Assembly (NCBI RefSeq): GCF_040938485.1 | Contig: NW_027271623.1 | Location: 147,756-211,755 of the forward strand | Reading direction: 5' to 3' | Source: Diadema antillarum | Lineage: Eukaryota | Length of the DNA: 64,000 nt | In this document: positions 12,085 to 64,000 of the stretch, piece by piece | Layout: every line of letters begins with the position of its first letter | Position numbering within the stretch: the first letter of the stretch is position 1 | Notes under the pieces: model-generated | The model's database searches: none | Seen by the model: only the letters and a program-made list of their open reading frames with translations | What the model was told of the DNA's origin: nothing | Position numbers and translations under genes: made by a program

Positions 12085-13100
12085 GTACCAAGTCTCCACG
12101 AGGGAGCTCATATCGTCTCCACGGGGGAGCTCATATTGTCTCCACAAAGAAGCTAATTAGGTCTCCACGAGGGAGCTCATATGATATTTATGAATACCTC
12201 AAAATCTGTCACGGAATGTTGCCTCATCTTTTACTCTCCACGGCTTTAACCTCATTGAAAATAGTAGAAAAGACAGGCTGGATGAAGGAGTAGCCATATA
12301 TTTAAAGCAAGGATTTGATTATGTTGTTCATGATCATCTTAATCGTAAGAGTGATGCAATTGAATCTCCGGTAATTGAAATTAGAATTTAAGAGAATAAA
12401 AAACATTAAGTTAGTTATTATTCATAGGCCTCCAAATCCAAATACCAATGATTTCTTTGATTTTCTACAAGTTATATGGAATACACAATCCTGTTTTCAG
12501 AAAGAGAGATTGTTATATAACGAGGGATTTCAATATAGATTCATGTAAATTCAATTGAATTTATTCCCCACAATTTTTTTTAAAGCATTATGTTAACTGG
12601 TTCTTTTCTGCCATTTATTGATAGATTAATTCGGGGACCAGTCGCACAGCCACTCTGATAGATAATTCACATGTATTTACTAATGTCATTCCATTAACTT
12701 AATCAGGGATTTTTTCTTTACCAGACATATCTGATCATTATCGTATACTTATTTCATCTCCATATAAATCTAGAAATAATAAGGAATTGACAAAAAAATA
12801 AGACTCCCAATTAATAATTTGGCTATTTTACAACACAGTTCAAATGCTGCTGACTGTACAAATGTATACACTTCACTAGATGCAAGTACTTCATAATATT
12901 ATGATAATCTTATGAAAATGTTAATTTATCATTAAGGTAAGAATATTCCGTTTGTAAAAGCGAAATATATCAAAAAAAAGACTTTCATGGGTTTCTAAGT
13001 CCTCGTTGCGTTCTATCAATCGAAAACACGACATATATCATATGGATATAATGTAAAAACTGAATATTGTCGCTTTAAATACACTTCTTATAAAAATACA
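12085..13100 (+). mobile_element. LINE 5' fragment: 5'UTR-type ~24-bp tandem repeats (12085-12185) followed by a degenerate APE endonuclease-domain coding remnant
   Basis: Four tandem CTCCACGRGGGAGCTCATAT-like units. Translation of 12280-12420 (GVAIYLKQGFDYVVHDHLNRKSDAIESPVIEIRI) resembles the APE region of ORF2 at 40231 (GGVGFYVSQTLNYQLLHEY...). Stops and frameshifts are present. Confidence 0.5.
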
Positions 13101-16100
13101 CTTGCTGGAATACTTCCAAATGAAATAAGTGAATATCAAAATAAACAGTTAGTTTTGTTTGAACATGAAATTATAAATTCTTGTTAAACTTTTGATATGG
13201 CACCTAATTATTCTAATTCTAAGTCATGTATTTCTAATATCAAACGTAATAATGTGCATATTGATAGTACAGGATCAATTGCGAATGTATTTCATTTATA
13301 ATTTCTCAAATAGGTCATAATTTAGATAAGAACATACATCTCTCAAAAAAGAATTCTGTAACACGTCGTGCTGATGATTGTTTACATTTTTTTTTGTTGG
13401 AAATGGTTGAAATGAATGAAGTATAGAATGATATGATATAAAAAGAAAAACCAAATGTCAATCACTCAAACAATCACAAAATAGTTATATACGTCTGTTT
13501 GATAGTAGAACTACAGTGAAATTGATACAGTATTGTCGGGCTTATGTGGGGTTAAGATGTCCAATAAACCCAACAAGATTATTACATCAGCATGAACAAA
13601 ACAAACTGGGAAGAATCAATTCTAAACAAAATGTGATCCTTTGTATGCGTGAAACTACGTGTAGGATTTCGGAATTGAATAGTTGCCATAGTGCATTTTT
13701 TTAAATTCTGTATTACGGAATTACAGGAAGAAAAAAAACAGTAGTAGAATATCAAATAGTAGCAGAGGAATTTTAGCACAAATTGATATAAGCATGTTTA
13801 TCATGTGCTTACCAATTACACTGCATGTCCGGCGTTTGTCTGGCATTTAGGTGAAGGGACTCACAACTTATTGTATCTTGAGCCCCTTTGGATAGGATGT
13901 AGGTCTTACCAGTAAGTCCCAAACGGAGAGTCGAGGATAAAAGAAACACCAAAAGAACACCCCTATGCGCATATAGGCCTCTGGTAAAATACTGAGTAGC
14001 CTAATTTGATTTTTCATGAGACGTTCCACTAGACCAAAGGTTGTTATTAGACCAACATGACCAAAGGTTTGTCAACTATGTTTGAAAATCGCACGTAGTC
14101 ACATGTTTATTTATCTTTTAATTACTACTATTTTCAGGTTTATTATCTCAACGTGATTAAATTTATCGTCAAATAAACAAAGACAGGATGTCACTGCTTA
14201 AAGCACATGAATTCATCTTTTTGTTTAAAGGTATTAAAATCCTATTTTGTTCTTCATTTCTTCTTCCTCCTCTCAAAACTAACCCCAAATATGATGAATT
14301 CTAAGTAATCTCTACCATGCTTCATAAAACCATGTTCTATGAACTCTGCCAGTCCCCAGCCCTCAGGAGCTTCACAACCAATTGGGTTTAGGCCTTATAG
14401 ATAAAGCCTCAATTGGCTCTATGATAAACTTTCTCACATGTGGAAATAGAACTATTAAGTTCAGAAATTCCCATCCCGGGCAGTGTGTAAAACACAGGTG
14501 AACCAAATAATTTTGCCTCATCTTTCCACCACCACGCACACGCACACACACAGACGCAGACAGAGAGACAGAGAGACAGACAGGCACAAACACATAAGTA
14601 CACACACACCCACTAGTTTGAATCAACCAAACAAAGCTGGATATTAATCTGAATGACAGCAGCAGCAATGCAGCTGGATTTCCACGTTTAAAAGCCAGTT
14701 ACTACTATGACTTGCTTAGATAAAAATATAATCATAAACAATATTAGTATAAAGTATTTATTCTTTGAAAGCTTCACTTGAACGATATTTGATGCAATTA
14801 TATTCCCCCACTCATCAAGATAACAAATATATATGGTAAATGATTATTTGTTTTTTCAAGCTCTATTTTCTTCCTTCAACTGCATCTTGCACTCACACCT
14901 GCAACCGCACTGCACCCACCTGATCACTTTCTTCCAAGAGAGTTGTGTCGTTGGATAGTCCTTTTCATCCATTTCAAGCTTAATCGCTTACGATGGTGGT
15001 CTCCTGCATCCAATGATCTCTGTTATTTACTGAAAAATACTGTACATTTTATTTTATGTTTTGGTGTATGTACACTGTTCAATGCAATCACCCACGTGTA
15101 TCTGTTAGTGTACTGTTATCAGGTTATCGATTTATTTCACTGCACTTGCTATTCTTTGTCTTTGTACTTTTGAAATTTGTATCTAAATTTTATCTTATTG
15201 AATGCAGAAATAAAGCAAATCAAATCAAATCAAATCAAAATCTTGAATACAGACAGAATTGATTTGAGTCTGGACTGTTTAATGAATCTCTTGAGCAGAC
15301 ATTCCTATGAAAATCAAATCGAAAGATTTTTTGTTTTGTTTTTGCATAGCTATAAACACTTTAGAGCAAACATGAAAAACATGACGATGAAACTGATGAT
15401 AAAACAAATATATTTATTATCATCCAGTCATATGAAACAAAAATCTTATTTCATCCCTCTATTTCTTATCCTCTCTTCCCATCTCTTTCACATATCAAAT
15501 GGGGAGCTTTAGTTTAAGTTGTTGTTGTTCTTTACGCTATTCTGGTATTTACTCTGTTATTGTTATGGTTTATTGTGTTTAACTGTCTCACTATGGTGTG
15601 ATTTAATTTTCGGGGACCTGGGTAACACAAACTGTTCTTTTGATTTAGGCTCCCCACTTTGGTTCTAATGACTACTACTTACTTAAGATTTGTTGCAAAT
15701 GTATAGGTTATTAGAATATATGTTTCAATTATAAAAAGATATTTTTGTATAGTTAAATCATATTAACTCAGTATATTATTTGTGTCTTTGTGAACACAAA
15801 GTGGAAATGGATTCAAATCAAATCAAATCGAATCAAACAAACAGTAAAGACATTGCAAAAATACATGCGATACACGTTCAACCAATGAGCAAGGTGTCTT
15901 CAATCCATACAAAAATATCTATATCCACGGGTGTTTGTTTTACATAGTTCCTTTTTCTTATTTGCTTGAAGATATTGGCTTCCTGTTAGAATCTTATTCA
16001 TTTACCAAACAAGGCAAGAGCAAAGATTACCCAAACTTCATATGGACAAACAAAACCGGAAGCAGTACTTTTTAAAAGACCTTCGTAGCCTCCCATGGTC

Positions 16101-16391
16101 ACAAAATTTTATCGAAATGGTTCAAGGAAGTATTGTATAAGGTAAGTGAGTTAAGAAGGAATGATCCTCCAGCCCTTTTGTGATTGAAGGTAGTCATTTG
16201 TGATCTAAAGTCTCTACATCATGGATTCGATGTCCTGTCTTGGTTGATGTATTACATGAAATGAGTCTAGCGTCCAGAGAAATGCTCTTGCAGACTACGG
16301 GAAAGATTTGGCTGCCATGATTGTTTTCCTTTATTCCTTACCAGCCAAAATAATCCCATCTTTCTTTGAGCCTTCTGTCAATCAGTGCTAC

Positions 16392-17208
16392 GTTGAATAC
16401 AGTGAAAGCAGTCAAACGGAATAGCAGAAGTTCAACTTCAATAAAATACAGAGATTTGGGAACAAAAGTTAAATCTTTATCGTATAGTGATTTTGGTCTC
16501 AACCACATATAGATATCATCTGAGGTGTTGATGCCATCAACTCATAAACTCATCCTGATTTATGCACATACAAGTATGATATATGTCTAATGGGAAGAAT
16601 TGGGCGAAAGCACCTTACGGTACTTACGTCCAGCATAGCGTCCTTTCATTGTCAAACATGATAATTACAGAAAATTTGGTTGAGCCCCCCCCCCCCACAA
16701 AAAAAAGAACAAACAAACAAACAAAGAACACAAAGAAACAAACAATAAAAGCAAAAAAAAATCATTTTTATATTCTCTTCGCGTTCTAATGACGTACTGC
16801 CAAGGTTCAATGTCAAGCTCTTTGAGCATTTTGATCCTCTCTTATATTCTTTACTCCACGTTGCATTCGCCTACTTATGTCGGCAGTTGCAATTGTGTTA
16901 CATTAATTTGTGTTATTGATGTATAATTGATGTATATATCTCTGTATTTGTTACATCCAAACCCAAAAGTTTGGTGCTTTAGTCTAACTCCTCTCACTGG
17001 ACATAAATATTACTCGTATTTGCACAAATCAAAGGATGAGTTTATGAGTTGATTGCATCAACACCTCAGCTGACTTCTAAATGTGGTTGAGACCAAAATC
17101 ACTTTAAGATGAAAATTCAAAGTGGAGCTTTAAATTCCCAAATCTCTTTATTTCATGAAAGTTGAACTTTTACTATTCCTTTTGTCTGCTTTTACTGTAT
17201 AATCAAGT
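16392..17208. mobile_element. Foldback/MITE-like element with ~180-bp terminal inverted repeats and a ~460-bp core
   Basis: 16392-16570 is the reverse complement of 17030-17208, for example ...GGAATAGCAGAAGTTCAACTTCAATAAAATACAGAGATTTGGGAAC... vs the reverse complement of ...GTTCCCAAATCTCTTTATTTCATGAAAGTTGAACTTTTACTATTCC.... Confidence 0.7.
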
Positions 17209-17789
17209 AAATTTAGTATGGTTTCAAAGCATAAGGTCTAAAGTATACACATCGTTTGAAGGATATTTTGCGCTTAAGATATTGTCTGTCCCTCAAAATG
17301 CATAAGTTATTTCGCATGTTAAATCACGTTTGCGCTTATAGACATTTAAAATGTCCATACTTTCATATGCTGGGTTCTAGAATTGGGACAATCGAAGTAT
17401 TATATACTATGATGGTTAAAAAAATGCAATATAAACGTGATAAACTGGCTAAAAGAATCATTGTACTAATTTTGATGTCCCTCGAAGTATATGGGTTTCA
17501 GATACGTGCGCGCGTGAACACACACACTCACACACCCATAACGAGACAAAAAAACCTCTCCAAGTTCTCAAAATAAATAAGTAATAATTAGTGATCTCAT
17601 GAAGTTTTGCCACTACAATTCAAAGATAATACAGGAAAGTAGAAAGTTGCATAATCAACTATTCTAAGCCTGAAGCAACAATAAACATGTAATTTGTATA
17701 TCCAGAAGAACCAGACCGATATTACAAGTAACTTGTTTAGGTATACATGTTTAATTGCGTTTAGATACATCGAATGAAACCCTGAACTG

Positions 17790-18254
17790 TTGTGTTTCTT
17801 ACACAGGGAGGATAGTTTTGGAAACTCTGTCTTATTTAACTTACCACAAACTCAGCTCTCCATGCTACAGAGGCTTCAAAATGCGGCAGCACGCATCATC
17901 ACACTATCCAAGAAGCACACTCACATCACCCCTATTTTGAGATCACTTCATTGGTTACCAGTCAAAGATCGCATTATTTTTAAGATTTTACTTTTGACTT
18001 TTCATTGCATTCAGGGCGCTGCTCCTCAGTATAACATTGACTTACTCCATAATTACATCCCTGTTAGATCTTTACGCTCATCCAACTCCGGTTCTCTGAT
18101 AATTCCAAGATTCACTACAATATGGGGCACACGTGCCTTTGGCCATGCTGCTCCCACCTTATGGAATAACCTACCTTCAGCCGTTAAAAATTGTTCTTCA
18201 TCAGACTCCTTTAAAAGCAGTCTAAAAACTCACTTGTTTAAAGCCTCAATTTGA
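17790..18254 (+). mobile_element. LINE (CR1/L2-like) ORF2 C-terminal fragment, 5'-truncated
   Basis: 154-aa ORF carrying the conserved tail ...LQRLQNAAARII...TPIL..LHWLPV..RI.FKIL...PQY...L..Y.P.R.LRS...G.L..PR....G.RAF...AP.LWN.LP......S...FKS.LKTHLF. Confidence 0.7.
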
Positions 18255-19370: not shown

Positions 19371-19734
19371 TTAAAGGGGATGGCTAGTAACCGATCAGTG
19401 GGAATCAGTGGGAATGCTGAGGGATGATTTTTCAATCCTTGTGGGATTTATTTAAGAGTACATTATATATCTACTGTTGTGTGAAAATTATTTGCTTCAG
19501 AACGGTCTCATATTCAAGTAAAGTGCAGATTAATGCCCCGTCACTGACCAGGGACGCTTACCTGGAAACATTAAACTGCACATTACTTGAATATGAGACC
19601 ATTCTGAGGCAAATAATTTTCACGCAAGAATAGATATATAATGTACTCTTAAATGAACCCCACAAGGATTGGAACAATCATCCTCCAGCATTCCCACTGA
19701 TTCCCACTGATCAGTTACTAGCCATCCCCTTTAA
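19371..19734. mobile_element. Foldback MITE, family FB-1, complete copy. ~155-bp near-perfect inverted arms, ~50-bp loop, TTAA at both ends.
   Basis: TTAAAGGGGATGGCTAGTAACCGATCAGTGGGAATCAGTGGGAATG... at the left end. Its exact reverse complement ...CATTCCCACTGATTCCCACTGATCAGTTACTAGCCATCCCCTTTAA at the right end. Confidence 0.85.
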
Positions 19735-19971: not shown

Positions 19972-20549
19972 TTAAAGGACAAGTTCACCTTCATAAACAT
20001 AAGGATTGAGAAAATGCAACAATATTAGTAGAACACATGAGTGAAAGTTTGAGGAAAATTGGACAATCGATGCAAAAGTTATGAATTTTTTAAATTTTTG
20101 TGTTGGAACCGCTGGATGAGGAGACTACTACAGCTTTTGAGTCATATGCGTACAACAGTATAAAGAAAATATAAAAGAAAATTCAACATATTTTCACTTT
20201 TTTTCGCATAATAAAAGAGCAATTGACTTGCCTCTTTCTAAAGGCAGGGGGAATAATATTACCCATAACATTTATCGGTAACGAGTCAGGGGAATGTGTA
20301 CTTTTTTCAAAAGATGGAATTTTGTGAAATTCTCTTTATATTTTCCTTATATTGTTGTACGCATGTAACATCTAAGTTATTCATACACTGCAGTAGTTTT
20401 CTCATCCAGCGGGTACTGCACAAAAACTTCAAAAATTCATAACTTTTGAACGGATTGTCTGATTTTCCTCAAACTTTCAATGATGTGTTCTACTAATATT
20501 GCTACATTCTCTCAATCCTTATGTTTATGAAGGTGAACTTGTCCTTTAA
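19972..20549. mobile_element. Foldback MITE, family FB-2, copy a. ~220-bp inverted arms; termini TTAAAGG...CCTTTAA.
   Basis: Arms 19972-20190 and 20330-20549 are reverse complements. Homologous to 61885-62828 and to the fragment at 34440-34575. Confidence 0.8.
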
Positions 20550-21413: not shown

Positions 21414-23264
21414 TTACAAAATCAAATATGTATCAAATATGTATAGTCTATCTGGAGTGCAGAAAGCTATCTCACCACTCTCAAACTCTTGTAGATAGTA
21501 CCAATTCATTCCTTCTGCTTCTTGTATTTTGAAATCAGTGACGACAGTATGCATGTGCTCCAAATCGCTCGTGTATCGATCGATATTCACGAATCCCTCT
21601 TCGTACTTCACCCGGGCTACAATGACCGAATCATCTCGACAAACAGCTGGGAAGGAAGCCATGTTCTCCTTTTCCTGCAACCGGGCAGACTCTTTACTCT
21701 TCTCATCAAGGCAGATAACATTTGATAAATCTGTCACTATCAGTTTCCCCACGGATTGAAAGGAGAATAATTGGAAGGGTGAACATTCATCACACACTAT
21801 TTCCCTGACTGCCTTACCACCCTGTGGGGTAAATACCTGGATCTTGTTGGGTTTCTTATGACCCACGTAGATATTGTCATCTCTATCCACAGTGAGACCG
21901 CCACGCCCTCCTTCATCAAAACTCATCGTCTCGAATGTGACGTCAAGCTTCTCCCACTGTGAAGTGTATAGTGACACATCGCTTTCAGTATCACGTACAA
22001 CGCTTCGGCCATCAGACAGGAATCCAATTTTACTGACACTGACATCCTGCAACACGGTCTGATGTAACTTGCCATCAGGGGAGTAGAGATGGATTCCGCC
22101 TATAAACGAACCCACCGCCATCTTACCATCTGGTGCACGAGTGATACCGCTCATGCTGTCTTCGCCAGGGAGCTCTACAACATCCCATTTATAATCTTGC
22201 AAGTGTCCCAGATAAAGTTCATTGACGTTCACGTATCTACAGAACGAAACTTTCCGAGCTTCTCCTGTAACACAACTCGGTGACTGGTAGTCAGGATCAC
22301 TTCGTCCCAGAAAGCTTTTCAAGTTCTCACACAGTGTGTCGTGTGCAATCAAGGCGTCTTTCTCTAGTGGTACCTTCATACCATTAGTTACCAGCTCTTC
22401 CAAATCTTTCATTTGACGAATTGTATGCCAACTCTCCTCTTCCATGATCTGTAATTCCGTGTCGAATGATTCAAACCATCGTTTCACTTGGCATTTCAAA
22501 GCCTCTCTTCTGTCAAATAGTAACTTCATGTATTCTTCGTACGTTTTGTCGATGTCCTCATTGAGCCCTTTTAGCATATTTCTTATTTCAATGCGTTGTG
22601 TTTCTATGAAGTCGATACGTTTTCCGACGTTTATTTTCTTTGATTTTGTTCTTTCTCTCAACTCCTTGATATTTATCACCAATTTCTCCTCATGGATGGC
22701 TGCCTCTTCCAGATGATGACCAGCTTGCAGGTGCTTTAGCATCCCACACGGTATGCAACTGTACTCCCGACAATGGGTGCAGAAACACTGTGCATCAGCG
22801 CTGGGGTGTTTCTTGCACTTCCGTCGCCTTTTAAGCGGAACTTTTCCGGTGAGCACCTCGCTCATGGGTACTACTTCATGGTTGGAGAGTGGTTTCCAGT
22901 TACAGTGTCCTTTCTGACATGATTTACACATATATTTTTCACAGTCCTGACAGTAAGACACAGCTGGCGGCTTTTCGTCCATCTCACAAACTGTACAGGT
23001 TGGACTTTTGGTTTTCACTTCGTCCGCTAGAGAACTCAATGGTACGTTTGTTTGCAACTTACTCACATCACCACTGGGTACGGGTGTTCCTTCCCTGCAC
23101 ACAGGACATGTTATAGTTTCTTGGTCGGGCTGGGTTTGAAAGATACGTCCAAGACAGTCTTTGCAGAAGGTGTGAGAGCATGCCAGTGATTTAGGTTGGT
23201 TGAAAAGTGTCAGGCAGATAGGACACTCCAGATTCTGGCTGCTGATTTGATGAAACGTTGCCAT
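21414..23264 (-). CDS. Intact intronless TRIM-like E3 ubiquitin ligase (616 aa): C3HC4 RING, B-box1, B-box2, coiled coil, C-terminal NHL-like beta-propeller
   Basis: Start Met taken at MATFHQ (23262-23264), which is conserved as the start of the two paralogs. The given ORF extends 26 codons further upstream. RING: CPICLTLFNQPKSLACSHTFCKDCL...CPVCR. B-boxes: CTVCE...YCQDCEKYMCKSCQKGH and CKKHPSADAQCFCTHCREYSCIPCGMLKH. Coiled coil ~230-330. Repeated DGK/IYV/IQVF/LYIF blade-like motifs in the C-terminal 300 aa. Confidence 0.8.
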   Translation of the reverse strand: MATFHQISSQNLECPICLTLFNQPKSLACSHTFCKDCLGRIFQTQPDQETITCPVCREGTPVPSGDVSKLQTNVPLSSLADEVKTKSPTCTVCEMDEKPPAVSYCQDCEKYMCKSCQKGHCNWKPLSNHEVVPMSEVLTGKVPLKRRRKCKKHPSADAQCFCTHCREYSCIPCGMLKHLQAGHHLEEAAIHEEKLVINIKELRERTKSKKINVGKRIDFIETQRIEIRNMLKGLNEDIDKTYEEYMKLLFDRREALKCQVKRWFESFDTELQIMEEESWHTIRQMKDLEELVTNGMKVPLEKDALIAHDTLCENLKSFLGRSDPDYQSPSCVTGEARKVSFCRYVNVNELYLGHLQDYKWDVVELPGEDSMSGITRAPDGKMAVGSFIGGIHLYSPDGKLHQTVLQDVSVSKIGFLSDGRSVVRDTESDVSLYTSQWEKLDVTFETMSFDEGGRGGLTVDRDDNIYVGHKKPNKIQVFTPQGGKAVREIVCDECSPFQLFSFQSVGKLIVTDLSNVICLDEKSKESARLQEKENMASFPAVCRDDSVIVARVKYEEGFVNIDRYTSDLEHMHTVVTDFKIQEAEGMNWYYLQEFESGEIAFCTPDRLYIFDTYLIL

Positions 23265-24789
23265 AGTGTCTGTCTGTCTACAGGCAAAAGAATCACATAA
23301 CGGTAACACATCAACAAGGACTTGTCGAAAAAAAAAATACATGTATCAGTATTGATAGACAAATAAAGAAAATGGGAGGCATGTCGAGAAACTAGTAGTT
23401 GACACACTCCCGCCAAAGAGCAAAAAGAGAAAGAATATTGACAGAGCGGTGAAAGAGTGGTGCTCTCAACCAACGTACTTGTTACTCCTCTTTCTGAAGC
23501 AAATGTTCTCTTTTAGGTCATGAAATCTCCTCAGTAGATTCTTTGAGGAATAAAGCAATTACATCCTTTATACCAAAGTCCTCAAAGAAAGAGAACAAGG
23601 AAGAAGAGACAGAAATTGCTATTAAGCACTGAAACGTCCAAAGATGTAACTCTATTGACAATTTTCCCCACACAATTTAAAAATATGTGCTATCTGACAT
23701 TGGCTACGTGTAGTGTACAAATTATTAACAGCCTTGCGTTTATAATCTTCCTAATTTTTCCACTGTCATGTTAAAAACCTTGCAGGACCTATTTAGCGTG
23801 AAATTGCATTTGAGGAAAGAAAATGTGTGTAACAGCATCGTTTAAACTAAGTTTGTTCTTTACCTGCAGACGCTATGATCGAGTTCCAAATATTCTACAA
23901 GCATGAATAGACACCTCTCGCGTGCTTCAGTCTAAGTTATGAAAATAAAGTGATTTAGCAGGTCGCACTGTTAACACAATAAAAGAAAACAAAAAGGAAG
24001 TCCTAAAGAGTTTTGAATATTATTGTGCCAAGTTCTACTCGTGTCTCATAATTCGCTAACCTCTTATCCTTTTTTTTGCATAGATTTGCATTTTTTTTTT
24101 TTTGCATATTGCATGAGGTTCCTACGCCCACCTTCAGAGAGCGAACAGAGCTTAATAGTATTCTATCTTTTAAGATATGTATACATAATTTTCTCAAGCG
24201 CTCGCTCGCTTCGCTCGCTCGCGAAAATAGGCCTAGTAATTTCGACATAAGACACGGTCCACGCGTTGACAATGTCAAATGATATAGGCTTACATGTATT
24301 CATGCTATGACGCGCGCAACTCTGGACCGGCATGGTTCCCCAATGAAAGTATTTGGGGGCAAACATAACATTCTGCTCCTCCCCCTCATTCCCGAGATGT
24401 GGAAATTTTCTTGCCTTTTTGATACAAAAATGTCTAAATATTTCACCCAAAGATGGCTGAATTCTAATTTTCAAAATAAAAAATCTCCCTAACAGAAAGG
24501 GGGATAGGCCTACCCCCTTTCATACCCCCCCCCCCCCCCGTTCGGTAAACGTCCTTTCTACTTAATACACTTTTAGATGTTTCAAGTAAAGTGTGCACCA
24601 GGTCTGTCACTTCGGTAAAAAAAAATGCAAAAGTGGGCGGATGGGAGGAGATAACCGGTTATGGCTTGTCATCGTGATTGTACGTGATGGTGACTATTGC
24701 CAATCATCCCCCACTCCTCGGTACGGATTTCCGCCGTCACGGCTCCGAAGTACATTAATTAGGCATTCTCATGAGATCACAACCTGATG

Positions 24790-31000: not shown

Positions 31001-32299
31001 CCCATTATCTTCAGCATCACCACCATCATTTTCATCTTCGTTATCACATTTTTCATCATCATTACCCTGTCATCATCATCATACATCATCATTGTCACCA
31101 TCATCATATTTCACTTTACTCTTATTCGTATCTATGCACTAGAATATAAAAACATAATGTATTTACAGAGTATTATATTTTGTAGTATTTCTCCATTCCG
31201 CACACAATATAATTTTTTTTGTGTATTATGTAGATAGGTACCTGGGCTGCCACATGTTCAAGCTTTTGCTTATAGTGGCAGTCCTTCTTCCGCATAATTT
31301 TTCAGATAATTATTTGGAAACTTGGTAATACGAGTTATATTTCGTTAACGAAATTAATTTACACATCGATTTTCCTTCTTTGAATCATGTACATTGTAAT
31401 CTGCTTACTGATATTCTATGTGATATTACTGAAAAGAATCTTGATTTATGTATGAAATTGTGTTGGAAGAAAAATGAATCAAACAAACAAACATACAATA
31501 CTTCATTTTTATCAAGGAGCTTACAAATATGGAAAGACTTCTGAGGGAGATTCGATAAGAGCGAGGATCATTATCAAAAATGCTTTCATGTGTTAACTGC
31601 ATGGGAGGAAGGAAAATTGATATAAAAAAAATAGAAGATTTGATGATCTATTTGTAACATTTCCATAGTGAAAACAATGCAAAAATACATGTACATGTCA
31701 ACTATATCTCTAAATCTCTAAATCTCTCTTTCTTTTACCGAACCAGCTGTTTACATTTAACCAATGATATTACTTTTTAAGTTCCAGTTGAAGAACGTGA
31801 TCATAACTTCTTTCCTGTCTATTACTCAGCGAAATTCATACCTTGTTATGTTTTTTTGTTATTGTTCCATATTCCACATTTCAACAAATACATAAAAGAT
31901 AAACATCACAATACAAAAGCCTGGATGAATTGTCAAGTACAGCTTATAAGACAATAAAACATGTGAAATATGAGGAATCTACATAGAAGCATTGCTTGTA
32001 GGGTGTAGATTCCCAGATGAGGATGTGACATTATTTCTTACTTGATATATGTAATTAAAGGAATGAAAATTTGTGAATTGGAGAAATATAAAAGTAAAAA
32101 GAAAAAGAAAAAACAAAGAAAACAATGTCCGCGGCACAAGACTTCTTGAGAGTTGCGTGATCACCCGAGCGAGGTACAAGTCAGATGCAGTGTACAATAG
32201 CAGAGATACCAAATGTGTACAGAGAAAGTTCGGGAGATAATACAGAAATCACGAGCGAGGCACATGTTACATAATCGATAATGTCAGTAATGTGAAGTA

Positions 32300-33720
32300 T
32301 GAGCAGAGAATGTCGAGGAGGATTGAAGAATAGCTATAGATATGAATTCAGAAAAACTAGTTAAGTTTATGCTTAAATGAATAAAGAGACTGAGATTGGA
32401 TTATTTCTCTATCCAACTCATTCCAAAATTTAGGTCCTGTAGTGGTTATTGTTTTTAAAGCAGATACGGTCCGTACAGGAGAAAGATGAAAAGAATCTTT
32501 TTGTCTAGTAAGGTAAGAATGAACTGCAGTATTTTTGACAAACATCGAAGAAAACACATCAGGGAGACCACCTGAGTTTAATTGATCATAAATGACCCGA
32601 TATTGAAATGATATAAATCCTGGATCTTAGATGTTCTACTGGAAAAGAATAAGACATTAGTGTGTTCCAAAAATGTGGCGAAGTTAATTATCCGTATAGC
32701 TCTTTTCTGTATCAATAGTAAAGAATTACGTCTAGTTGTACAGCAGTTTACCCATGCCAGGATTCCATAACCTGTCCCTAAGGCAAAAATAGAGTAGAAT
32801 ACAATGAATGCAGAACATGTTTAGGAAAATACTGCTTTAACTTATACATAACACCTACATTTTTTGATAGTAATTTACGCAAAGAATCAACATGAACTTT
32901 CCATGTCAACTTACAATCAATATAAAGACCAAGGAATTTTATATATTCCACCTGGTTCAATTCCACGTCGTTTACGACCAACTTACCAGGTAAAATATCG
33001 ATTATATTGCTAAAGACCATAAATTTTGTCTTGGTCAAATTCAGTGACAATTTATTAGCCTGAATCCACTTAGATACTGATTTTAATTCATTATTAATGG
33101 TATTTAGTAAAACATGAGGGTTTCGATTTAAATAAAAAATGCTGGTGTCATCGGCAAAAAGTAGAAAATAGAGCAGAGAGGACGAACTGCGAAAGTCATT
33201 CATATAAAGAATAAACGATAAAGGACCTAAAAGGGATCCTTGCGGTACCCCACAAGTTATAGGCTGTGAGCTGGACACATGGCCATTCAAACTAACAAAT
33301 TGAGTTCTTCCAGTAAGGTAACTTCTAAACCACTCCAAGGCCCTTCCACGAATCCCACAGTGTTGTAATTTGTATAATAATATTTCATGGTTGATTGTGT
33401 CAAAGGCCTTGGAGTAGTCAAGAAAGATACCTACTGTGTGACACTTGGCATCGATCGCTTTAATAATTTTCTCTATCATTAGTAAAATAGCATGAATTGT
33501 CGAATGCTTTTTACGAAATCCAAATCGATTATCATCTATTACATTACAGTCGTTTCATAGAATACGCAATCTTTTCAAGTAATTTAGAAAGAGAAGTTAA
33601 TAACGATATTGGTCGATAATTTCCCAGTTCGTCCTCTCGACCCTTTTTATATATCGGGATAACTTTAGTGATTTTCATCCTAGTAGGCACTACACCGTTC
33701 AGTAATGACAAATTAAATAT
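32300..33720 (-). mobile_element. 5'-truncated LINE fragment (RT C-terminal half plus tail) on the minus strand
   Basis: ORF 32778-33479: ...GIFLDYSKAFDTINHEILLYKL...CGVPQGSLLGPLSFILYMND...FADDTSIF... (RT motifs). ORF 32357-32557: ...FKHKLN tail. Degenerate RT continues above 33479. Confidence 0.75.
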
Positions 33721-33900: not shown

Positions 33901-34439
33901 GAGTATTTGCCTGGATACAGTCATGATTAACGCTATAAAAGTGAAAAGTGCAATAAAAGAAAGATAGCTACAGAATAGATAAAGTTTACAAAAATGATAT
34001 GAATGGAATTTTCATAAGACTTGCAGCGTCTACAGAGCTGGGAAATGTATTTCTTGATAGGTATTCAGGAAATTGCGGGGATAAGAAATTCAATGAAATT
34101 TTACTCAAACTGATTTGTACAAGTCGCATACAAGGGAATATAACCCTTTCCCTGACACTTCTCCTTTATCTTTATCTAAAGCAAACATGACTTAGCTGAT
34201 TTCTGGGTGATAGAGCATACGGGGACCAGTAGGCCCGACTGTTGGTGCGCGGTGAGCACGTTCGATATGCCTATACACCTTTGAGACCTTTGAGATTTGG
34301 GTCAATTTTGTGTTTTCAAGAAAGTCTGCCATAAATGACATGAGGCTTTTCCCTTTTTCCCCATCATGATAATAAAACCCACAAGATAGTTGCGTCTTGA
34401 GGATCATCAATTTTTTTAGGAGCTAAGTCAGCGATGCTG

Positions 34440-34575
34440 GAAATTATAATGTAAAAATTCATAAGTTTTGAACGGATTTTCCAATTGTCCTCAAACTTCC
34501 ACCGATTATAGTGTTCTAGTAATATTGCTGCATTCTCTCAACTCACTTGTATATAATGTGAACGTGTCCTTTAGA
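34440..34575. mobile_element. Fragment of an FB-2 MITE arm
   Basis: Matches the 20420-20545 arm (…ATAAGTTTTGAACGGATT…CCTCAAACTT…GTGTTCTAGTAATATTGCTGCATTCTCTCAA…). Confidence 0.55.
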
Positions 34576-55350: not shown

Positions 55351-56982
55351 TCAAATTTCACATTTCGTCGCAACAAATATGTACACTCTATCTGCAGTGG
55401 AGAAAGCTATCTCACCGCTCTCAAATTCCTGTAGATGGCATTCACTTCCAAGTACAAGATTTTGAATTTTGAAATCAGAGACGATATCGTACATGTGCTC
55501 CAAATCTTTCGTGTATCGATCGATACTGATGGTATCCTCAATGTAATCTACCCAGGCTACAATGACCGAATCATCTCGACAAACAGCTGGCCAGGCTGCA
55601 ATACCCTCCTTCCTTAAGACATTCTCCTTCTTCCCATTACTATTAATGCACATGACTTCTAATACCATTGGCACTTCATTTACTATGAAATTCCTCGAAG
55701 TGTGGAAGGAGAAAAGAGTGAAAGGAAAAAAAGCTTCATTGTCAAATGTTATTTCCCTGACTGGCTCACCACCCTGTGGGGTGAATACCTGGATCTGAGG
55801 GCATGTAGGGGATATTGAATAACACACGTAGATATTATCATCTTTATCCACAGCTAGAGCAGCAATATCTTCTTTATCGCAACTCATCGTCTCGAACTCA
55901 GTGTCGAGTTTTTCCCACTGTGGAGTGTACATGGAAATCTCATTTTCTGAATTGCGTATGACACTTCGACCATCCGACAGGAATCGAAAATCAGAGATAC
56001 CGACATCCTTCAGCACGGTTTGCTGTGTCTCACCATCAGGGGAGAAAATGTGGATTCCTCCTTCATCCGAACCCACCGCCATCTTACCGTCTGGTGCACA
56101 AATCATACACTCTATGTTGTCTTTGCTCGGGAGCTCCATTACGTCTACTTTGACATCCCACGAGCAAGTTTTCAGCTCTCCAATGTAATGTTCATTAACC
56201 TTCACTTGTCTACTAAATGAAATCTTCTCCGCTCGCTCTGTCACACCTCGCGGTGATTGGTCGTCAGGATCATCTCGTCCAAGAAGGCTCTCCAGGTTCT
56301 CGCACAGCGTGTCGTGCACAAACAAAGCATCTTTCTCCAGCGGTATCTTCGTGCCGTTGGTAACCAATTCTTCCACAGCGTTCATGTGACTGACTGTTTG
56401 GCGACTCTCTTCCGTCATAGTTTGTAATTCCTTCTCGAATTTTTCAGACAATCGCTTCACTTGAGATTTCAGGGCTTCTCTTCTGTCTAACAAAAGCTGC
56501 ATGCTCTCCTCGTAAGTCTTCTCGATGTCATCATTAAGCTTTCTTAGCATTCTTGTTACTTCATTGCGTTGTGTCTCTATGAACTCGATATGGTTTTCAA
56601 TGGTTGTTTTCTTTGATTTTGTTTTTTCTTTCAACTTCTTGATATTTTCAATTAATTTCTTTTCATGGATGACTGCCTCTTCCAGCTTGTGTCCCTCTTG
56701 CAAATGCTTCAGCATCCCGCATTTATTGCACGTGTACTCTCGGCAATTGGGGCAGAAACAGTCTTCATCCTCATTAGGGTGTTTCTTACATTTCCGTCGC
56801 CTCTTGATTGGAACTTTTCCTGAGAGCACCTCGCTCATGGCTACTATTGAGTGGATGGAGAATGGTGTCCAGGTAGAGTGGCTTTTCTCACAGGCTTTAC
56901 ACATATATTTCCCACAGTCCTGACAGTAGGACACGGCTGGCGGTTTTTCCTCCGTCTTACAAACCGTGCACGTTGGACTCCG
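55351..56982 (-). pseudogene. TRIM-like paralog 3, distal part (B-box1, B-box2, coiled coil, beta-propeller). The 527-aa ORF is intact but is separated from its RING exon by transposon insertions.
   Basis: ORF 55351-56934 extends in frame up to 56982 (…RSPTCTVCKTEEKPPAVSYCQDCGKYMC…). It is ~60-70% identical to the corresponding region of 21414-23264. Confidence 0.75.
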
Positions 56983-56984
56983 GG

Positions 56985-58919
56985 GGTGGTATTCTGTAAG
57001 GGCGATCCTTATTTCGATCCTAGGAGCGCGCGTAGGACAGAAAATAGGATACCCTTAGGACAGGCAAAATCGGTATTCTGTAAGCCTGTCCTAAGCCTAT
57101 CCTAGGACAGTCATTTATAAATAATGAATATTAATGAGGAAAGACAGGACACGCCCGGCGCAGTATCTATAAGCCAATCATCTGGCTAATTTTACGCAAT
57201 GCGCGCCCAAGATCTACATTGCTCAAACATGCGCTTCACGCAGCTCTTACTGTGCGAGGAGTTAAAATGTATTGTCAGTCTAATTTTACAGTTAAGAATA
57301 CAATTTTGATTATCAAAGCTTTAGCACGCACTTAGCCCACCATAATAGATGTGACCTTACGAGTTCCATTAATTAGCATTTAAAGTTTTTGCAGAAATTA
57401 GCTCAAATTTTGAACTTTTGGAGGATGTTGGGGTAAACTGGGATATCATCACTGCATGCCAAACTTCGCCCTTAATTCAAAGTTATTATAAAATATATAA
57501 GATTTTCTTAAATAAATATAAATAATAATAATGATAATAATAGATGCACTCACAGACACACACACACATGCGCTCACATTATTTTATAAATATGATCGAT
57601 ATGCTTGTAATGATAATGTCTTGCTTATAGTTAGGACCTACTGTTTGTCCCACTTAAACCAAACCAATGTTCCACTTCTCCCAGGAAAAAAAACCAATTA
57701 TAACACAAATATGAGACTTATACGAATATAGCGTAGCAACCCGTTATATGGCTAGCATCAAAAGTCTTTTGGTCCGATACATGTGTGCCCGGCCATTCTA
57801 GATATTAGAAAGTTATTCGAGAAACTTCATCAAATCACAATTTTTGTCCCTCTTAATTCACCCCGCTAGCTCTCCCCTATCTTTATGGTAGTATAGACTT
57901 ACATGCAGGGCAATGATAACAGAATAAATAAACAGAATAAATAAAGGAGATTACTGATAGATTAAACAAAGATATAAACATGGAGCTACTATAGCTCCAT
58001 GATATCCTTGTATACGGGTGCTGTTCGCTATTCCGAAGGTTCGTTAATCCGAAACACACAAATTCTCCATACCTAGAGGTTCGTTAATCCGAAAATGAAA
58101 AAGGGTTCGTTAATCCGAATATTTGTGGCGTTATTTCGAAGGTTCGTTATTCTGAAGATTTGTTAATTCGAAAATGAAATTTGGAATAACGAACCTTCGG
58201 AATAACGAATCTTCAGACTGGAGCATTCGGAATAACGAACCTTCGGAATAACGAGCTGTAACCGTATAAACACGTAAGTTCACTACATTTTGGAAAAAAA
58301 AAATGTTAACCCATGCACATGGACTGTTAGGTCACCGGGTTGCGTCACACACTATACGTACGTCTTAACAATAATGTGAGCGTATGGATCGTTGCGTTAC
58401 TAATACTTTACATGGCCGGCGGAACACAAAGAAATGCATAAGGTGTCATCACTTTGGGCCCCCACAATTTTTTTTAACCCGGAAGTACGTAAGTGGCACT
58501 AAATAGAAATAGATAGAGATCTTGAAGTGTGCGGAACGCGGTAAGGTTATGTTTTTCCAATGTAGACTTTTTTTTATTCGCTTGTCAGCTGAAGAAACCC
58601 AGAAATGGAAAGGGTGAGAGGAGCTGAGAACCTTTTTTTATTTTTTTTTTCTTGTTAGCTCATGAAACCCGGAAGTAGGCCCCCACGCTTTTAAAAACGT
58701 TCAGTCGGCCCTGCTTTATTCTTCACGCGACCTAGAAGCACACTGCGTACGTTTCTTTTTCTTTGGTTACTAGATCTTCATAGCAACGACTTCGAGGGTC
58801 ACGTAATGTGGGCGGCGAAGGTAGGCTACTTGCACCGCGTCCGCATGACGTTCGGGCAGACGTTGAGCATAATAATAATGATAACAATAATGACAATAAT
58901 GATAATAATAATAATAATG

Positions 58920-58960
<41 letters not shown>

Positions 58961-59600
58961 AATAATAACAATAACAATGATAATATTAATAATGATGATA
59001 ATTATTATCATTATTACAATATTAATTATAATTATAATAATAGCTTTTGTTGTTATTGTGTACATAATGTACTTTTTATTTATTTTGTGCCGAATAAAAT
59101 GAAATGTGAATTGAATTGAAAATGGCGAACAACAAACAAATAAACACATACCAGCTAGATAAAGAATACAACTGTTTCGAACATAATAGACTGCAGTTTT
59201 AGAATCCTCAGTATGAAAGGGACAGATAACTCTGTTATACGATTCATGTATCTATTTTCTTGTTCATGAACATACAAAATAAGAGACAGTGGGTCGTCAG
59301 TAGGCCTATATACGCAATAGCCCGGCATAATCGCCAGAGAAAGATTGCCTAGAGGCTATCCTTATTTTTGCTCCTAAACTTGATCCTACTTGTGCTTACA
59401 GAATACCACTTATCTTAAGATCTCATTAACATCTAATTACATCTAATTAACATATCAAGTTACGCCCCTATCCTAAACTGGGAAAGAAATAAGGATCCCT
59501 GACGTCACTATCCTATTTCTCCTCCTACGCGCGGTGTTACAGAATACCAATCGCGTATTTAGGAGCGAGAGCTGTCCTAGGATCCTTACAGAATACCACC
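56985..59600. mobile_element. Non-autonomous TIR (DNA-transposon-like) element, 2.6 kb, with 17-bp perfect TIRs GGTGGTATTCTGTAAGG, inserted in the TRIM coding sequence
   Basis: Left TIR 56985-57001; its reverse complement at 59584-59600. Sub-terminal GGTATTCTGTAAG / CCTAGGA repeats on both sides. No transposase ORF. Internal inverted GGTTCGTTAATCCGAA / TTCGGAATAACGAACC repeats at 58020-58260. Internal (AAT)n at 58862-59040. Confidence 0.75.
58862..59040. repeat. (AAT)n / (AATAAT)n microsatellite inside the TIR element
   Basis: Direct reading. It generates the spurious poly-N, poly-I and poly-L ORFs on both strands. Confidence 0.95.
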
Positions 59601-59603
59601 CCT

Positions 59604-59732
59604 GGGGGGCATTTCATGAAGCATTTTGTCTGACAACTTGTCGGACAAATTTGCTTTCAGCCAATCAGATGCAAGGATTTCGGTAGCTTTTAACAGTTTG
59701 TCAGACAAAATATCTGACAAAAGGCTTCATGA
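59604..59732. mobile_element. Palindromic MITE (~129 bp) with TIR GGGGGGCATTTCATGAAGCATTTTG
   Basis: GGGGGGCATTTCATGAAGC…GCTTCATGAAATGCCCCCC. Confidence 0.7.
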
Positions 59733-59733
59733 A

Positions 59734-59882
59734 ATGCCCCCCTGTGGGGCATTTCATGAAGCATTTTGGTCGGATATTTTTTTGACAGACTGTTACAAGC
59801 TATTGAAAACCTTGCATATGATTGGCTGAGAGCCCAATTTGTCCGACAACTTTCGAACAAAATGCTTCATGAAATGCCCCCC
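59734..59882. mobile_element. Second, tandem copy of the same MITE family (~148 bp)
   Basis: GTGGGGCATTTCATGAAGCATTTTGG…AAAATGCTTCATGAAATGCCCCCC. Confidence 0.7.
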
Positions 59883-59883
59883 A

Positions 59884-60138
59884 GGTTTTCACTTCGTCTA
59901 CGAGAGAACGCAGGGGTATGTTTGTTTGTAACTTACTCACACCTCCACTGGGTACGGGCGTTCCTTTCCTGCACACAGGGCATGTTATAGTTTGTTCGTC
60001 GGGCTGAGTTTGAAAGATACGTCCCAGACAGTCCTTGCAGAAGGTGTGAGAACATGTCAGTGATTTAGGTTGGTTGAAAAGTGTCAGACAAATAGGGCAC
60101 TCCAGATTCTGGCTGCTGATTTGATGAAACGTTGCCAT
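59884..60138 (-). pseudogene. TRIM-like paralog 3, orphaned 5' coding segment (RING finger, 85 aa up to …LVDEVKT)
   Basis: MATFHQISSQNLECPICLTLFNQPKSLTCSHTFCKDCLGRIFQTQPDEQTITCPVCRKGTPVPSGGVSKLQTNIPLRSLVDEVKT, then the reading frame runs into the MITE terminus. In the intact paralog the next residues are KSPTCTVCE, which here resume at 56982. Confidence 0.8.
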
Positions 60139-61884
60139 AGTGTCTGTCTGTCTGTCTGTCTATAAGCAAAAGAATCACATAACAGTAAACACATCAACAA
60201 GGACTTACCGATATATAATACGTGTATCAATATTAATAGAAAAGGAAAGTAAATGGGAGGCTTGTCGAAAGAATTTTACATTCGCAAGACCGAACAAAGT
60301 AATGAAAAACAAATTAAGATACTTGTGCAAATACCGTTTATTAATTACCAAGCATGCTTTATTCCCGGGTTCAATATCGCTAATTTATGTCTGCTCATTT
60401 AAGTGGACCCCACAACGTCTCATGCATCCCGAGAGTCTTTCATACGATGGTACCACTTTAGAATAAATGCGATATTTAGTATCACTCTGTGAGACCTGAA
60501 AGGAGCATTAGATAAACAAGGAATAGAAGGATGACCATGCACTCACAAAAATGTGATGAGGTGATCTTAGCAGGTATTTGCGGAATGGCTTATCTAATCA
60601 TGACCCTGTGTATAACCAAGGAGGTACTAGGCAAGCCTAGTACCTCCTTGGTATAACGCATGTAGGCCTATTATGTCCTCCCACGAGTTGCCATACACGT
60701 TAAAAAATAACATCAACAAGAACCGTAGCGATGTGAAAGAAATGATTCGCTAGAAAGGCATTATCGTTTGACTGTCTGTATTTCATGTAATAAGGTGTCC
60801 TTCAATTAAGACATAAGAAATATCCATGTATTGAATGATAGTCCCATTAGGTGTTTTGATTTTCTTTATTTGCATGAAGATGTTTTCTTTTGTCTTTGTG
60901 TTGGGGGAGTTTCGTATAGCGGGTACAACTCTTGCCTTAAAAAGAGAGGTGCCGAGATCGAAGAACTGCTGAGTGTTTTCGTCAGTTGACAAAATGACTC
61001 AGGTGTAAAAATGGGTTACTGCATGATGATGGTAATGCTTGATTAACAATAAAAGCAGTTTGTTTGTTTGTTTGATTTTTTGGCCGAAGAGTGCTAATAC
61101 TTTAGAGTCTGTTCTGGTAAGTAAGACGATGCTATTCTTTTTGCCATTATTATGTGACGTTTGAAGACTCTTTCTTTTACTTCGTACGTCAAGAGCAGAT
61201 AGGCACAAAGAAAACATTTCTTCCTGGGATCGATCAAATACGAGTAGAGAAACAAAACCTGTAGCAGTATTTTTATAGGAAAGTGTAACAGCCTTCGATG
61301 TTAAAGAAATCGATCGACAAATGGTGCAGAAAAATGAATGAATTAACTGAGTAGAGAAGAAGGATCCTAAAACCCTCAATTGGGTGGCTGAAGGCAGTCA
61401 GTTGTGGACTTGATCTCATAACTAGGTTCACGCATATGCCATTTTATTTGGCGTCGAGAGAAATGAGACTACATGAACAATTTAATGGCATGATTGGCTT
61501 TCTTTTTTCTCTTTGCAGCCACCATTATCGTTAAATAACCTTATTTCTGCTCGAACACTTGGTGCTGTCTTGTGTGAACTTTATAAAGGGATCCTTACGT
61601 CATTTTGGTCTAGGAGAACATCCTTTCATTTGGATTAGAATATACTTATCTAAGTAGTTGACTCCCACCCCCCCCCCCGACAAAAGAGCAAAAATGAGAA
61701 GAATATTGACAGAGCAGTGACAGAGTGGCGCTCTCACCCGACATCCTCGTCGCTCCTCTTACTGAAGCAAATGTTTTAGGTCATGAAATCTCCACAATTG
61801 ATACTTTGAGAAATAAAGCAATTTCAGCCTTGATACCAAAGTCCCCAAAGAAAGAGAACAATTAAAAAGAGACGGGTATCGCCA

Positions 61885-62828
61885 TTAAAGGGAACGTAAA
61901 CCCAAAGAGCAACGTGGATTGAGTGAAAGCAGTAACATTAGTAGAACACATCAGTGAAAGTTTGAGGAAAATCGGGCAATCGATGCAAAAGTTATGAATT
62001 TTTAAAGTTTTGGTGTTGGAACTGCTGGGTAAGGAGACTACTAGAGGTTATGACGTATGAGAGGACTACAACATTTATTTATTCAGTCTTCTTTAAAAAC
62101 AGGGTAGTCTTTTCAGAGCCAAAAGGCCTGCTTTTAAAAAGAGCCCTGTTAACATAAATATAACAATTACACATCGAAACATATTTGCATAAAATAATGT
62201 AAACAAAAAAAGTAATTACATCAAAACCAAAATATACCAAGTCAAAACACAATAACAACTAAACAGGAAAACAAACAAACAAACAAAACGAAACAGAAAC
62301 CATTAAACTAAGCTCATAACAGAACAATATGCTACATAACAAGACAGGGTAACCAACCTGCCACATAACAGTTGTGGCTACAGTTAGTGCGCAAAACTGT
62401 AAGAATGAATAAACCAGAATTTGCGTCAAATCTGCACTTACGACATGAAGAAAATATAAAGGGAATTCAATAGAAATTCATTTTTCATGAAAATTACACA
62501 TTCCATCAACTTGATACTGACATATGTTAGGGGTAGCACTTATTCCCCCTGCTTTCTGAAAGCGGTTAGTGAAGTACTCTTTCATTTTGCTATAAAAGTG
62601 ATTTTTTTTGTGTGTGGAATTCCTTTTATATTTTCTTTGTATTGTTGTCCACTCATACGTCATAACCTCTAGTAGTCTCCTCATTCAGCGGTTCCAACAC
62701 CAAAACTTTAAAAATTCTTAACTTTTGCATCGATTGTCCGATTTTCCTCAAACTTTCACTGATGTGTTCTAATAATGTTAATGCTTTTACTCAATCCACA
62801 TTGCTCTTTGAGTTTGCATTCCTTTTAA
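61885..62828. mobile_element. Foldback MITE, family FB-2, copy b (944 bp; ~215-bp inverted arms, ~530-bp core), flanked by a TTAA target-site duplication
   Basis: Arms 61889-62100 and 62630-62824 are reverse complements. The paralogous sequence upstream of TRIM copy 2 (23615-23640, …CTATTAAGCACTGAAACGTCC…) is an empty site with a single TTAA. Confidence 0.85.
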
Positions 62829-64000
62829 GCACTACGGATATAAACGTCCCAAGATGTATCAACACACAAGCTACAAAATTATATGCTATCTGATATTGGG
62901 TATGTGTGTATTGTACAAAATTAGAGTTATCAATAGCCTTGTGTTTATAATCTTCCTAATTTCTCCATTGTCATGTTAAAAACCTTTGAGAGGCTATTTA
63001 GCGTCAAAGTGCATTTAAGGAAAGGAAATTTGTGTAACAGCATCGTTTAGACTAAGTTTGTTCTGTATCTGCAGACACTATGATCGAGTTCCAAATATTC
63101 TACAAGCATGAATAGACACCTCTCGTGTGCTTCAGTCTAAGTTATGAAAAGGAAGTGATTTAGCAGGTCGCACTGTTAACATAATAAAAAGAAAAGAAAA
63201 AGGAAGTCCTAAAGAGTTCTGAATTGGACCTAGTTCTACTCGCGTCTCATAATTCGCTAGCCTCTTATCTTTTTGCATAGATTTGTGATAAGATAGTTAA
63301 ACATTGTTTTATTTCCAAAGGAGAAAGTAAGTAATATCTCTATTCAAATAGCATTTTCATGAAAGCCTGTATTTCAGTTTTTCTGCCTGCCAAATGTATT
63401 ACAAATTATATCATAGGTTGGAGGATTAAACATTCTAAGTCAAACAGCAAAGTCATAACAGAAATGTTAAACAACCAAACGAGGGAGAATCAATTCTAAG
63501 CGTATTCAGTGACCATGCATTATTGTAAAACCATGCGCGTCACGCACAAGTAACATGCGTGTGTATGGATATTGTTTCTCATGCTTACCAAGTATGCCGT
63601 ACTTCCGGGTTCAACATTGTCGATTTATGTCTGGCTCCGAAGTACAGTTAGGCATGGGATAACAACCTGTAATCGGCAGGGAGGCAAACGCAGCTTCGAT
63701 TGAATGTGGTCTTACTTTCTAAATATCCTGATAGAGTATATTACGAGTTTGGAGAAATGAAAGACAGATCATTACAAAGCACTCCCAAAACGGTCTAGAG
63801 CTATCAAATACAAATGAGCACGTCTGCTTATCATGACCTCTTCGCTGTGACCTTTGTTTATACTAATTCTAGCAGCGGGTTTTCCCCACTGTGTGTCTAT
63901 CTGAAAGTCACAGCCCATTATGTAGTGTATATCGCCTCGTAAAGTGAGGTATGCTTGCGACATTGACTTTGGCAAATTCATTGGAAAGAGGATGATATTA

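Follow-up and report, generated by a model that had tools for sequence, protein, structure and literature searches.

In a 64-kb stretch of Diadema antillarum DNA (in the following called the window), a long inverted repeat bounded by TTAA lies upstream of TRIM copy 3. Which superfamily of transposons does it belong to, and did it arrive before or after the upstream regions of TRIM copies 2 and 3 diverged? An earlier note, made from the sequence alone, had described a foldback element with a TTAA target-site duplication and had assigned it to the piggyBac superfamily. From the analyses below, we conclude with a probability of roughly 0.8 that it is a T2-like MITE of the Kolobok superfamily, inserted at TTAA upstream of TRIM copy 3.

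Table 1 Features of the element (copy 1), of its empty site, of its relatives and of a second foldback family. Positions refer to the window unless a Diadema setosum locus (L002, L007) is named.
Feature	Position	Strand	Terminus (first five bases)	Basis or remark
Copy 1, left TTAA of target-site duplication	61885..61888	.		junction reading; single TTAA at empty sites
Copy 1, left TIR, 183 nt	61889..62071	+	5′-AGGGAACGTAAACCC (AGGGA)	arm alignment
Copy 1, internal non-coding region	62072..62641	.		
Copy 1, right TIR, 183 nt	62642..62824	-	5′-AAGGAATGCAAACTC (AAGGA), read on the minus strand	arm alignment
Copy 1, right TTAA of target-site duplication	62825..62828	.		junction reading
Paralogous empty site, single TTAA, upstream of intact TRIM copy 2	23622..23625	.		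flank alignment
Copy 2, complete, with both TTAAs	19972..20549	.	AGGACAAGTTCACC at both ends (AGGAC)	element proper 19976-20545, 570 bp
Solo arm, ends GTCCT	34423..34570	-	AGGACACGTTCAC (AGGAC)	followed by TTAG, 34571-34574
D. setosum copy	L002 1092-1598			80% identical to copy 2
D. setosum degraded fragment	L007 ~930-1095			one end with GTAA
Second family, complete copy, 356 bp	19375-19730 (19371-19734 with TTAAs)			~240 bp from copy 2 of the studied family
Second family, other copy	3182-4522 (3178-4526)			right terminus parted by an insertion of ~1 kb; right TTAA reads TTAG

Structure of the element and its junctions

We read both junctions base by base (GCCA-TTAA-AGGGAACG…GCATTCCTT-TTAA-GCACTACGG; the left one, rendered at another length, GCCA-TTAA-AGGGAACGTAAACC). 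The element, called copy 1 here, comprises 936 bp (61889-62824) and has a full TTAA at either side. Its inverted-repeat arms (61885-62071 and 62642-62828) span 187 nt with the TTAAs and are 91% complementary; without the TTAAs, they are 183 nt long each and differ by 16 mismatches. The 936-bp foldback with its TTAA target-site duplication, as described in the earlier note, was thus borne out by the inverted repeat, by both TTAAs and by the empty sites described below. The extent had also been given correctly, with the right boundary misplaced by one base: the element ends in …CCTT, and the full TTAA comes next. Folded as a single strand, copy 1 forms one hairpin of -233 kcal/mol, compared with -87±6 kcal/mol for shuffled sequences (z = -24).

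Further inside, copy 1 has a second, inner inverted repeat (62448-62468 and 62617-62637). Compared with copy 2, the left arm of copy 1 is broken in its inner part by a segment of ~370 bp (62076-62446) that copy 2 lacks. The extra segment contains an (AAAC)n run at 62269-62287, and no second copy of it was found in the window or in the fetched loci. Tandem Repeats Finder, applied to copy 1, reported only an internal (AAAC)4.8, leaving the arms without tandem repeats. At ~62105-62125, also within the extra segment, lies a look-alike of the histone 3′ stem-loop; an Rfam search of 60000-64000 returned only miRNA-like matches far below threshold and no histone stem-loop.

The longest open reading frame overlapping copy 1 has 68 amino acids. 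Both complete copies of the family are short (936 and 570 bp) and non-coding, and both are bounded by TIRs (183 and 165 nt, respectively), as is characteristic of MITEs. For a MITE, 936 bp is near the maximum length, which is due to the extra internal segment. Classification as a non-autonomous foldback or MITE-type transposon is therefore supported.

Very long inverted termini that form hairpins are also found in the foldback elements FB of Drosophila and TU of sea urchins, and TU elements occur in sea-urchin genomes. The arms of FB and TU consist of short tandem repeats, however, and their target-site duplications are longer than TTAA, in contrast to the repeat-free arms and the TTAA duplication found here. 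We rejected a foldback of the FB/TU type on the lack of tandem repeats in the arms of copy 1.

Further members of the family

Two more members had been noted in the window, a complete one at 19972-20549 and a fragment at 34440-34575, and both are real; the latter is a solo arm, for which we obtained slightly different boundaries (Table 1). The arms of copy 2 measure 169 nt at 87% with the TTAAs, corresponding to TIRs of 165 nt. Its core is inverted relative to that of copy 1. The TTAG that follows the solo arm is a TTAA with one mutated base. The motif TTAAAGGRMNNGTNNAC occurred three times, against 0.05 occurrences expected.

From ~175 kb of sampled D. setosum DNA, we recovered two further members, both degraded. 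The right end of the longer one, on locus L002, reads …GATCT-TTAA, and its left end is preceded by GCCT, not by TTAA. Metagenome contigs scanned with a 28-base conserved core of the arm gave no match. Arm divergence within the family amounts to 9-15%. This is a real, old, multi-copy MITE family of diadematoid sea urchins, with copies in two species.

A second, unrelated foldback family is present in the window. It is likewise flanked by TTAA and has Kolobok-type ends, TTAA-AGGGGATGGCTAGTA (AGGGG). It was absent from eight D. setosum loci.

Terminal sequences and superfamily assignment

Duplication of TTAA is made by Kolobok elements as well, which are set apart from piggyBac by their 5′-RR…YY-3′ termini (Kojima and Bao, PMC9587614). 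Xenopus T2-MITEs and Kolobok elements combine the TTAA target with a terminal AGGRR (Hikosaka et al. 2018, PMC6004289). The TIRs of full-length Xenopus Kolobok elements include AGGACATGTCAACCCC, AGGACAAGGAAAGCTT, AGGGGAACTATC and AGGGGAACTATCATGA, and those of the autonomous elements XKol A3 and A4 also begin with AGGAC (PMC6004289).

All five termini of the studied family in the window begin with A, and hence the element ends in T. Therefore, the terminal feature of piggyBac (first base C, last base G) is absent from five of five termini, and that of Kolobok is present: copies 1 and 2 read AG…CT, in addition to the TTAA duplication seen at both copies and confirmed by the empty sites. The 5′ ends of the arms begin with AG, including the one end of the solo arm; the only exception is copy 1, whose right end has AA. 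The AGGRR motif is seen at the left end of copy 1 (AGGGA), but not in full at its right end (AAGGA) or in copy 2 and the solo arm (AGGAC, with C as the fifth base).

The similarity to known Kolobok termini extends over slightly more bases. At 11-12 of 16 positions, the termini of the family agree with XKol TIRs, for instance AGGACATGTCAACCCC and AGGACAAGGAAAGCTT. The left TIR of copy 1 agrees with the TIR of Xenopus XKol-A3 at 11 of 16 positions, and with the terminus of the Ptychodera Kolobok element presented below also at 11 of 16. As a control, we compared all 835 TTAA-preceded 16-mers of the window (both strands) with the XKol TIRs, and only seven matched any of them at 11 or more of 16 positions. 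Three of these seven are termini of the studied family and two belong to the second TTAA foldback family.

The superfamily assignment rests on the TTAA duplication and on these ~14-16 terminal bases; further inward, no similarity between the arms and the Ptychodera or Xenopus elements is left. If only the site recognised and cleaved by the transposase were conserved, the similarity would be expected to end there. In other respects, the family resembles the Xenopus T2-MITEs (e.g. Xmix) and XKol elements in duplicating a TTAA target and in ends close to the terminal AGG(R)(R), and T2-MITEs, too, are non-coding and hairpin-like, fall into several subfamilies and have been described as ancient (PMC6004289). 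It differs in its host, an echinoderm and not a frog, in the lack of likeness past ~16 terminal bases and in its TIRs of 165-183 nt.

In the alternative reading, the element is a MITE of the piggyBac superfamily, moved by a DDD transposase of that superfamily with TTAA as its integration site. Integration specific to TTAA, with duplication of these 4 bp, is a trait that the family studied here has in common with piggyBac-like elements and their MITEs; the duplication is exact and the empty site clean, and in some structural groups of piggyBac-like elements the sub-terminal inverted repeats can reach 400 bp (PMC5381638). The termini, however, speak against it. A survey of 157 piggyBac-like elements found strong conservation of C as the first TIR base, with the motif C[C/A/T][C/A/T]…, and TIRs averaging 14 bp. 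Such elements run from CCC/CCY-like ends to G; the 3′ terminal G is needed for excision, which its loss abolishes in mutagenesis cited in PMC5381638. The elements in the window run from A to T, with AGG…CCT ends and TIRs of ~180 nt, and match the Kolobok ends of Xenopus and Ptychodera instead. A tblastn search of the window and of ~175 kb of D. setosum DNA with the T. ni piggyBac transposase gave no match, which is a weak test with an approximate query and a small sample. We give a piggyBac origin little credence. Of the statement that the TTAA duplication is the hallmark of piggyBac transposition, the duplication upon insertion holds and the superfamily does not, as the ends are AGG…CCT and not C…G.

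For the Sola superfamily, which makes 4-bp duplications, rules for target and terminus were not found in the literature searched. Kolobok itself is listed for many phyla, and for echinoderms only via the atypical KolobokP lineage (PMC9587614). Our literature search for Kolobok in sea urchins yielded nothing specific.

A Kolobok element of Ptychodera flava and searches for transposases

Using KolX domain queries taken from a supplementary figure of PMC9587614, we identified a homologue in the hemichordate Ptychodera flava and fetched the locus (L009, CM083783.1). It harbors an intact-looking element of 8.8 kb (9453-18238) with TTAA on both sides and long TIRs that are 100% identical. This Kolobok element was apparently active recently. 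Its left arm has an extra 97 bp (9483-9579) compared with the right arm. The KolX gene (PF20478) is 49% identical to the KolX of Kolobok-1_SKow, a Repbase element to which this member of the Kol0 group is related. A second reading frame of 522 amino acids is transposase-like, with GDGRCDSPG, ATDRH and DVWH (DxxH-type) stretches, and has weak Pfam matches to Mutator-like/MULE DDE transposases below the curated cut-offs.

The ends of the Ptychodera element read TTAA-AGGGGAAGTTCACCAAGG. In this cross-phylum comparison, its terminus AGGGGAAGTTCACC is identical to AGGACAAGTTCACC of copy 2 at 12 of 14 positions (12 of 16 over 16 bases), and it can likewise be compared to AGGGAACGTAAACC of copy 1. 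When all 835 TTAA sites of the window are ranked by their match to the Ptychodera terminus, the top three places go to copy 2 (both ends) and copy 1 (left end). The family thus shares its ends with an autonomous Kolobok element, one of another genome. TTAA flanks and long TIRs are common to both; the Ptychodera element, however, is 8.8 kb long and carries KolX and the transposase-like reading frame, whereas the elements in the window are non-coding, 0.57-0.94 kb long and unrelated in their sub-terminal sequence.

A Kolobok transposase combines THAP with a DDE with C/DxxH and H2CH, and may or may not be accompanied by KolX. In the 64-kb window and in ~175 kb of D. setosum DNA, a tiny sample, we found no remnants of Kolobok transposase, KolX or THAP genes, and local tblastn searches of the window and the D. 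setosum loci with KolX and the Ptychodera Kolobok transposase gave nothing significant. At the protein level, the KolX search returned 15 matches, none from Diadema, and the transposase search listed none named Diadema among the best 120 of 446 matches.

Two other loci were inspected for Kolobok ends. The Montipora locus L010 has no recognisable TIRs. The TARA eukaryotic scaffold L011 carries adjacent genes for THAP and a homologous transposase. At a distance of 365 bp upstream of them, TTAA-AGGGGAACTCC is a candidate for the left end; the contig stops before any right end. On the same scaffold (457-2808), type-B DNA polymerase genes (PF03175) lie a few kb from the THAP and Kolobok-like transposase genes. 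There, a Maverick/Polinton-like element may neighbor the Kolobok element or be nested with it.

Empty sites and timing of the insertion

The single TTAA reported upstream of TRIM copy 2 was found at 23622-23625, within the letters GCTA TTAA GCACTGAAACG (23618-23636). Alignment of the flanks showed that the regions upstream of copies 2 and 3 are truly paralogous and colinear, with 83.5% identity on the left (61683-61888 against 23415-23625) and 86.3% on the right (62863-63285 against 23669-24088). The match of the left flank reaches the last A of TTAA and that of the right flank begins at its first T, giving an overlap of exactly four bases.

We observed a second empty site in D. setosum on the minus strand of locus L004 (OZ188199.1), which is homologous to the region upstream of TRIM copy 3 and reads GGATATCGCCA TTAA GCACTGAAACGTCCCAAG. 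The flanks of copies 2 and 3 are 84-86% identical to each other, and either is 76-83% identical to L004. Because the two are closer to each other than to L004, the latter serves as the outgroup. Since the site is empty both upstream of TRIM copy 2 and in another species, a single insertion into the region upstream of TRIM copy 3, later than the duplication that produced copies 2 and 3, is the parsimonious history suggested by the alignments. Between the two arms of copy 1, divergence is K2P 0.094, lower than the 14-16% difference between the paralogous flanks, which fits an insertion after the duplication. The earlier view that the element inserted after the two upstream regions had diverged is in agreement with both empty sites.

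Beside the insertion site, copy 3 differs from both empty sites by a 7-bp indel (ACGGATA-type) at 62834-62840, 9 bp to the right of the duplication (TTAAGCACTACGGATATAAACG against TTAAGCACTGAAACG); MAFFT misaligned this stretch. On D. setosum L004, 8426-9046 is occupied by the 3′ end of a 5′-truncated LINE, which has an A-rich tail and a duplication of 7 bp (CAATTAC); the distance to the empty TTAA site is 65 bp. A homologous stretch of the window (31844-32435) adjoins a reverse-transcriptase reading frame (32778-33479).

The order of events could also be reversed, with an element older than the TRIM duplication that was precisely excised twice, once upstream of TRIM copy 2 and once at the D. 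setosum locus, restoring a single TTAA each time. The family is old, with arms that are 9-15% diverged. For piggyBac, the other TTAA-specific superfamily, precise excision free of footprints is documented (PMC7351741). Footprint-free excision is not known for Kolobok elements. One insertion and at least two independent precise excisions would be needed, though, against one insertion alone, and the lower divergence of the copy 1 arms relative to the flanks disagrees with an element that predates the duplication. We consider this history highly unlikely and retain a single late insertion.

The four overlapping bases also bear on the length of the duplication. A Stowaway-like MITE of the Tc1/mariner superfamily would duplicate TA, and its own A…T ends together with chance flanking T and A would mimic TTAA. 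The empty site T-TA-A, taken alone, is compatible with duplication of only 2 bp, provided that A is the first and T the last base of the element, and two degraded ends retain only TA-containing remnants (TTAG at the solo arm, GTAA on L007). Yet full TTAAs stand at both ends of both complete copies and, in D. setosum, to the right of the member on L002. Five of seven scorable outer bases fit TTAA, compared with ~31% by chance (p ~0.03 by our own binomial estimate on a small sample), the maximal overlap of the flanks at the empty site is exactly 4 bp, and the AGG termini match Kolobok. We favour the 4-bp reading and regard a Tc1/mariner origin as very improbable. A PIF/Harbinger element with a 3-bp duplication of TAA or TTA was rejected, since the two ends would become asymmetric by one base. 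Finally, long hairpins can come from replication or assembly errors, but a local inverted duplication or assembly artefact without any transposon is refuted by three members at unrelated sites of the window and two in D. setosum with the same kind of ends, as well as by the 4-bp duplication and the empty sites.

The remaining hallmarks of a MITE, a duplication proven by empty sites and dispersed copies, are present in the form of two empty sites and of five copies, three of which lie in the window and two in D. setosum DNA.

The TRIM cluster and its other insertions

The TRIM proteins encoded in the window have their best matches, at 72% identity, in proteins of D. setosum and D. antillarum. 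TRIM copy 2 (21414-23342, minus strand) is the sole copy with a full reading frame, of 642 amino acids, and TRIM copy 1 (~8462-10316) retains only a reading frame of 192 amino acids. In TRIM copy 3, the coding sequence is split by a 2.9-kb insertion of other inverted-repeat elements (~56979-59885), and this copy is therefore probably a pseudogene; the break corresponds to positions 23006 and 23010 of copy 2. One of the inserted elements has the TIR CCGGGGGTGGTATTCTGTAAGG (56980-57001 and 59584-59605). It is abutted by a hairpin element of 285 bp (59601-59885) with the perfect 29-nt TIR CCTGGGGGGCATTTCATGAAGC.

Copy 1 of the MITE occupies part of the 5′ flanking region of TRIM copy 3, with ~1.7 kb between it and the RING-coding part downstream. 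A functional or regulatory effect is unlikely because the coding sequence of TRIM copy 3 is already broken, and we infer that the insertion was probably neutral.

Also upstream of TRIM copy 3, a block of ~990 bp (60420-61407) has no counterpart on D. setosum L004. It contains a perfect 18-nt palindrome (60615-60652), and its Rfam matches are miRNA-like and far below threshold.

Mechanism and implications

How the element would have reached its site can be proposed from its termini and its target. A DDE-type Kolobok transposase, supplied in trans by an autonomous element, would recognise the AGG… termini within the long inverted repeats. It would excise the donor copy at the AGG…CCT ends and integrate it into a TTAA cut in a staggered manner, the repair of which would duplicate these four bases. 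These steps reveal no new mechanism; this is an ordinary mobile-element insertion of a known type.

MITEs flanked by TTAA that are called piggyBac by default can be mislabelled Kolobok elements, and in the case studied here the terminal bases decide. The MITE also provides a dated insertion marker for a diadematoid urchin, inside a cluster of TRIM genes expanded in tandem. For the phylum, the finding suggests that classical Kolobok elements were active in echinoderms.

A bolder reading, which we regard as unlikely, is that diadematoids carry a still-active lineage of classical Kolobok elements (TTAA-specific, KolX-type), with MITE families, at least two of them in the window, inserting polymorphically near the fast-expanding TRIM cluster and altering its regulation. 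If true, a classical Kolobok lineage would be active in a phylum listed only with the atypical KolobokP (PMC9587614).
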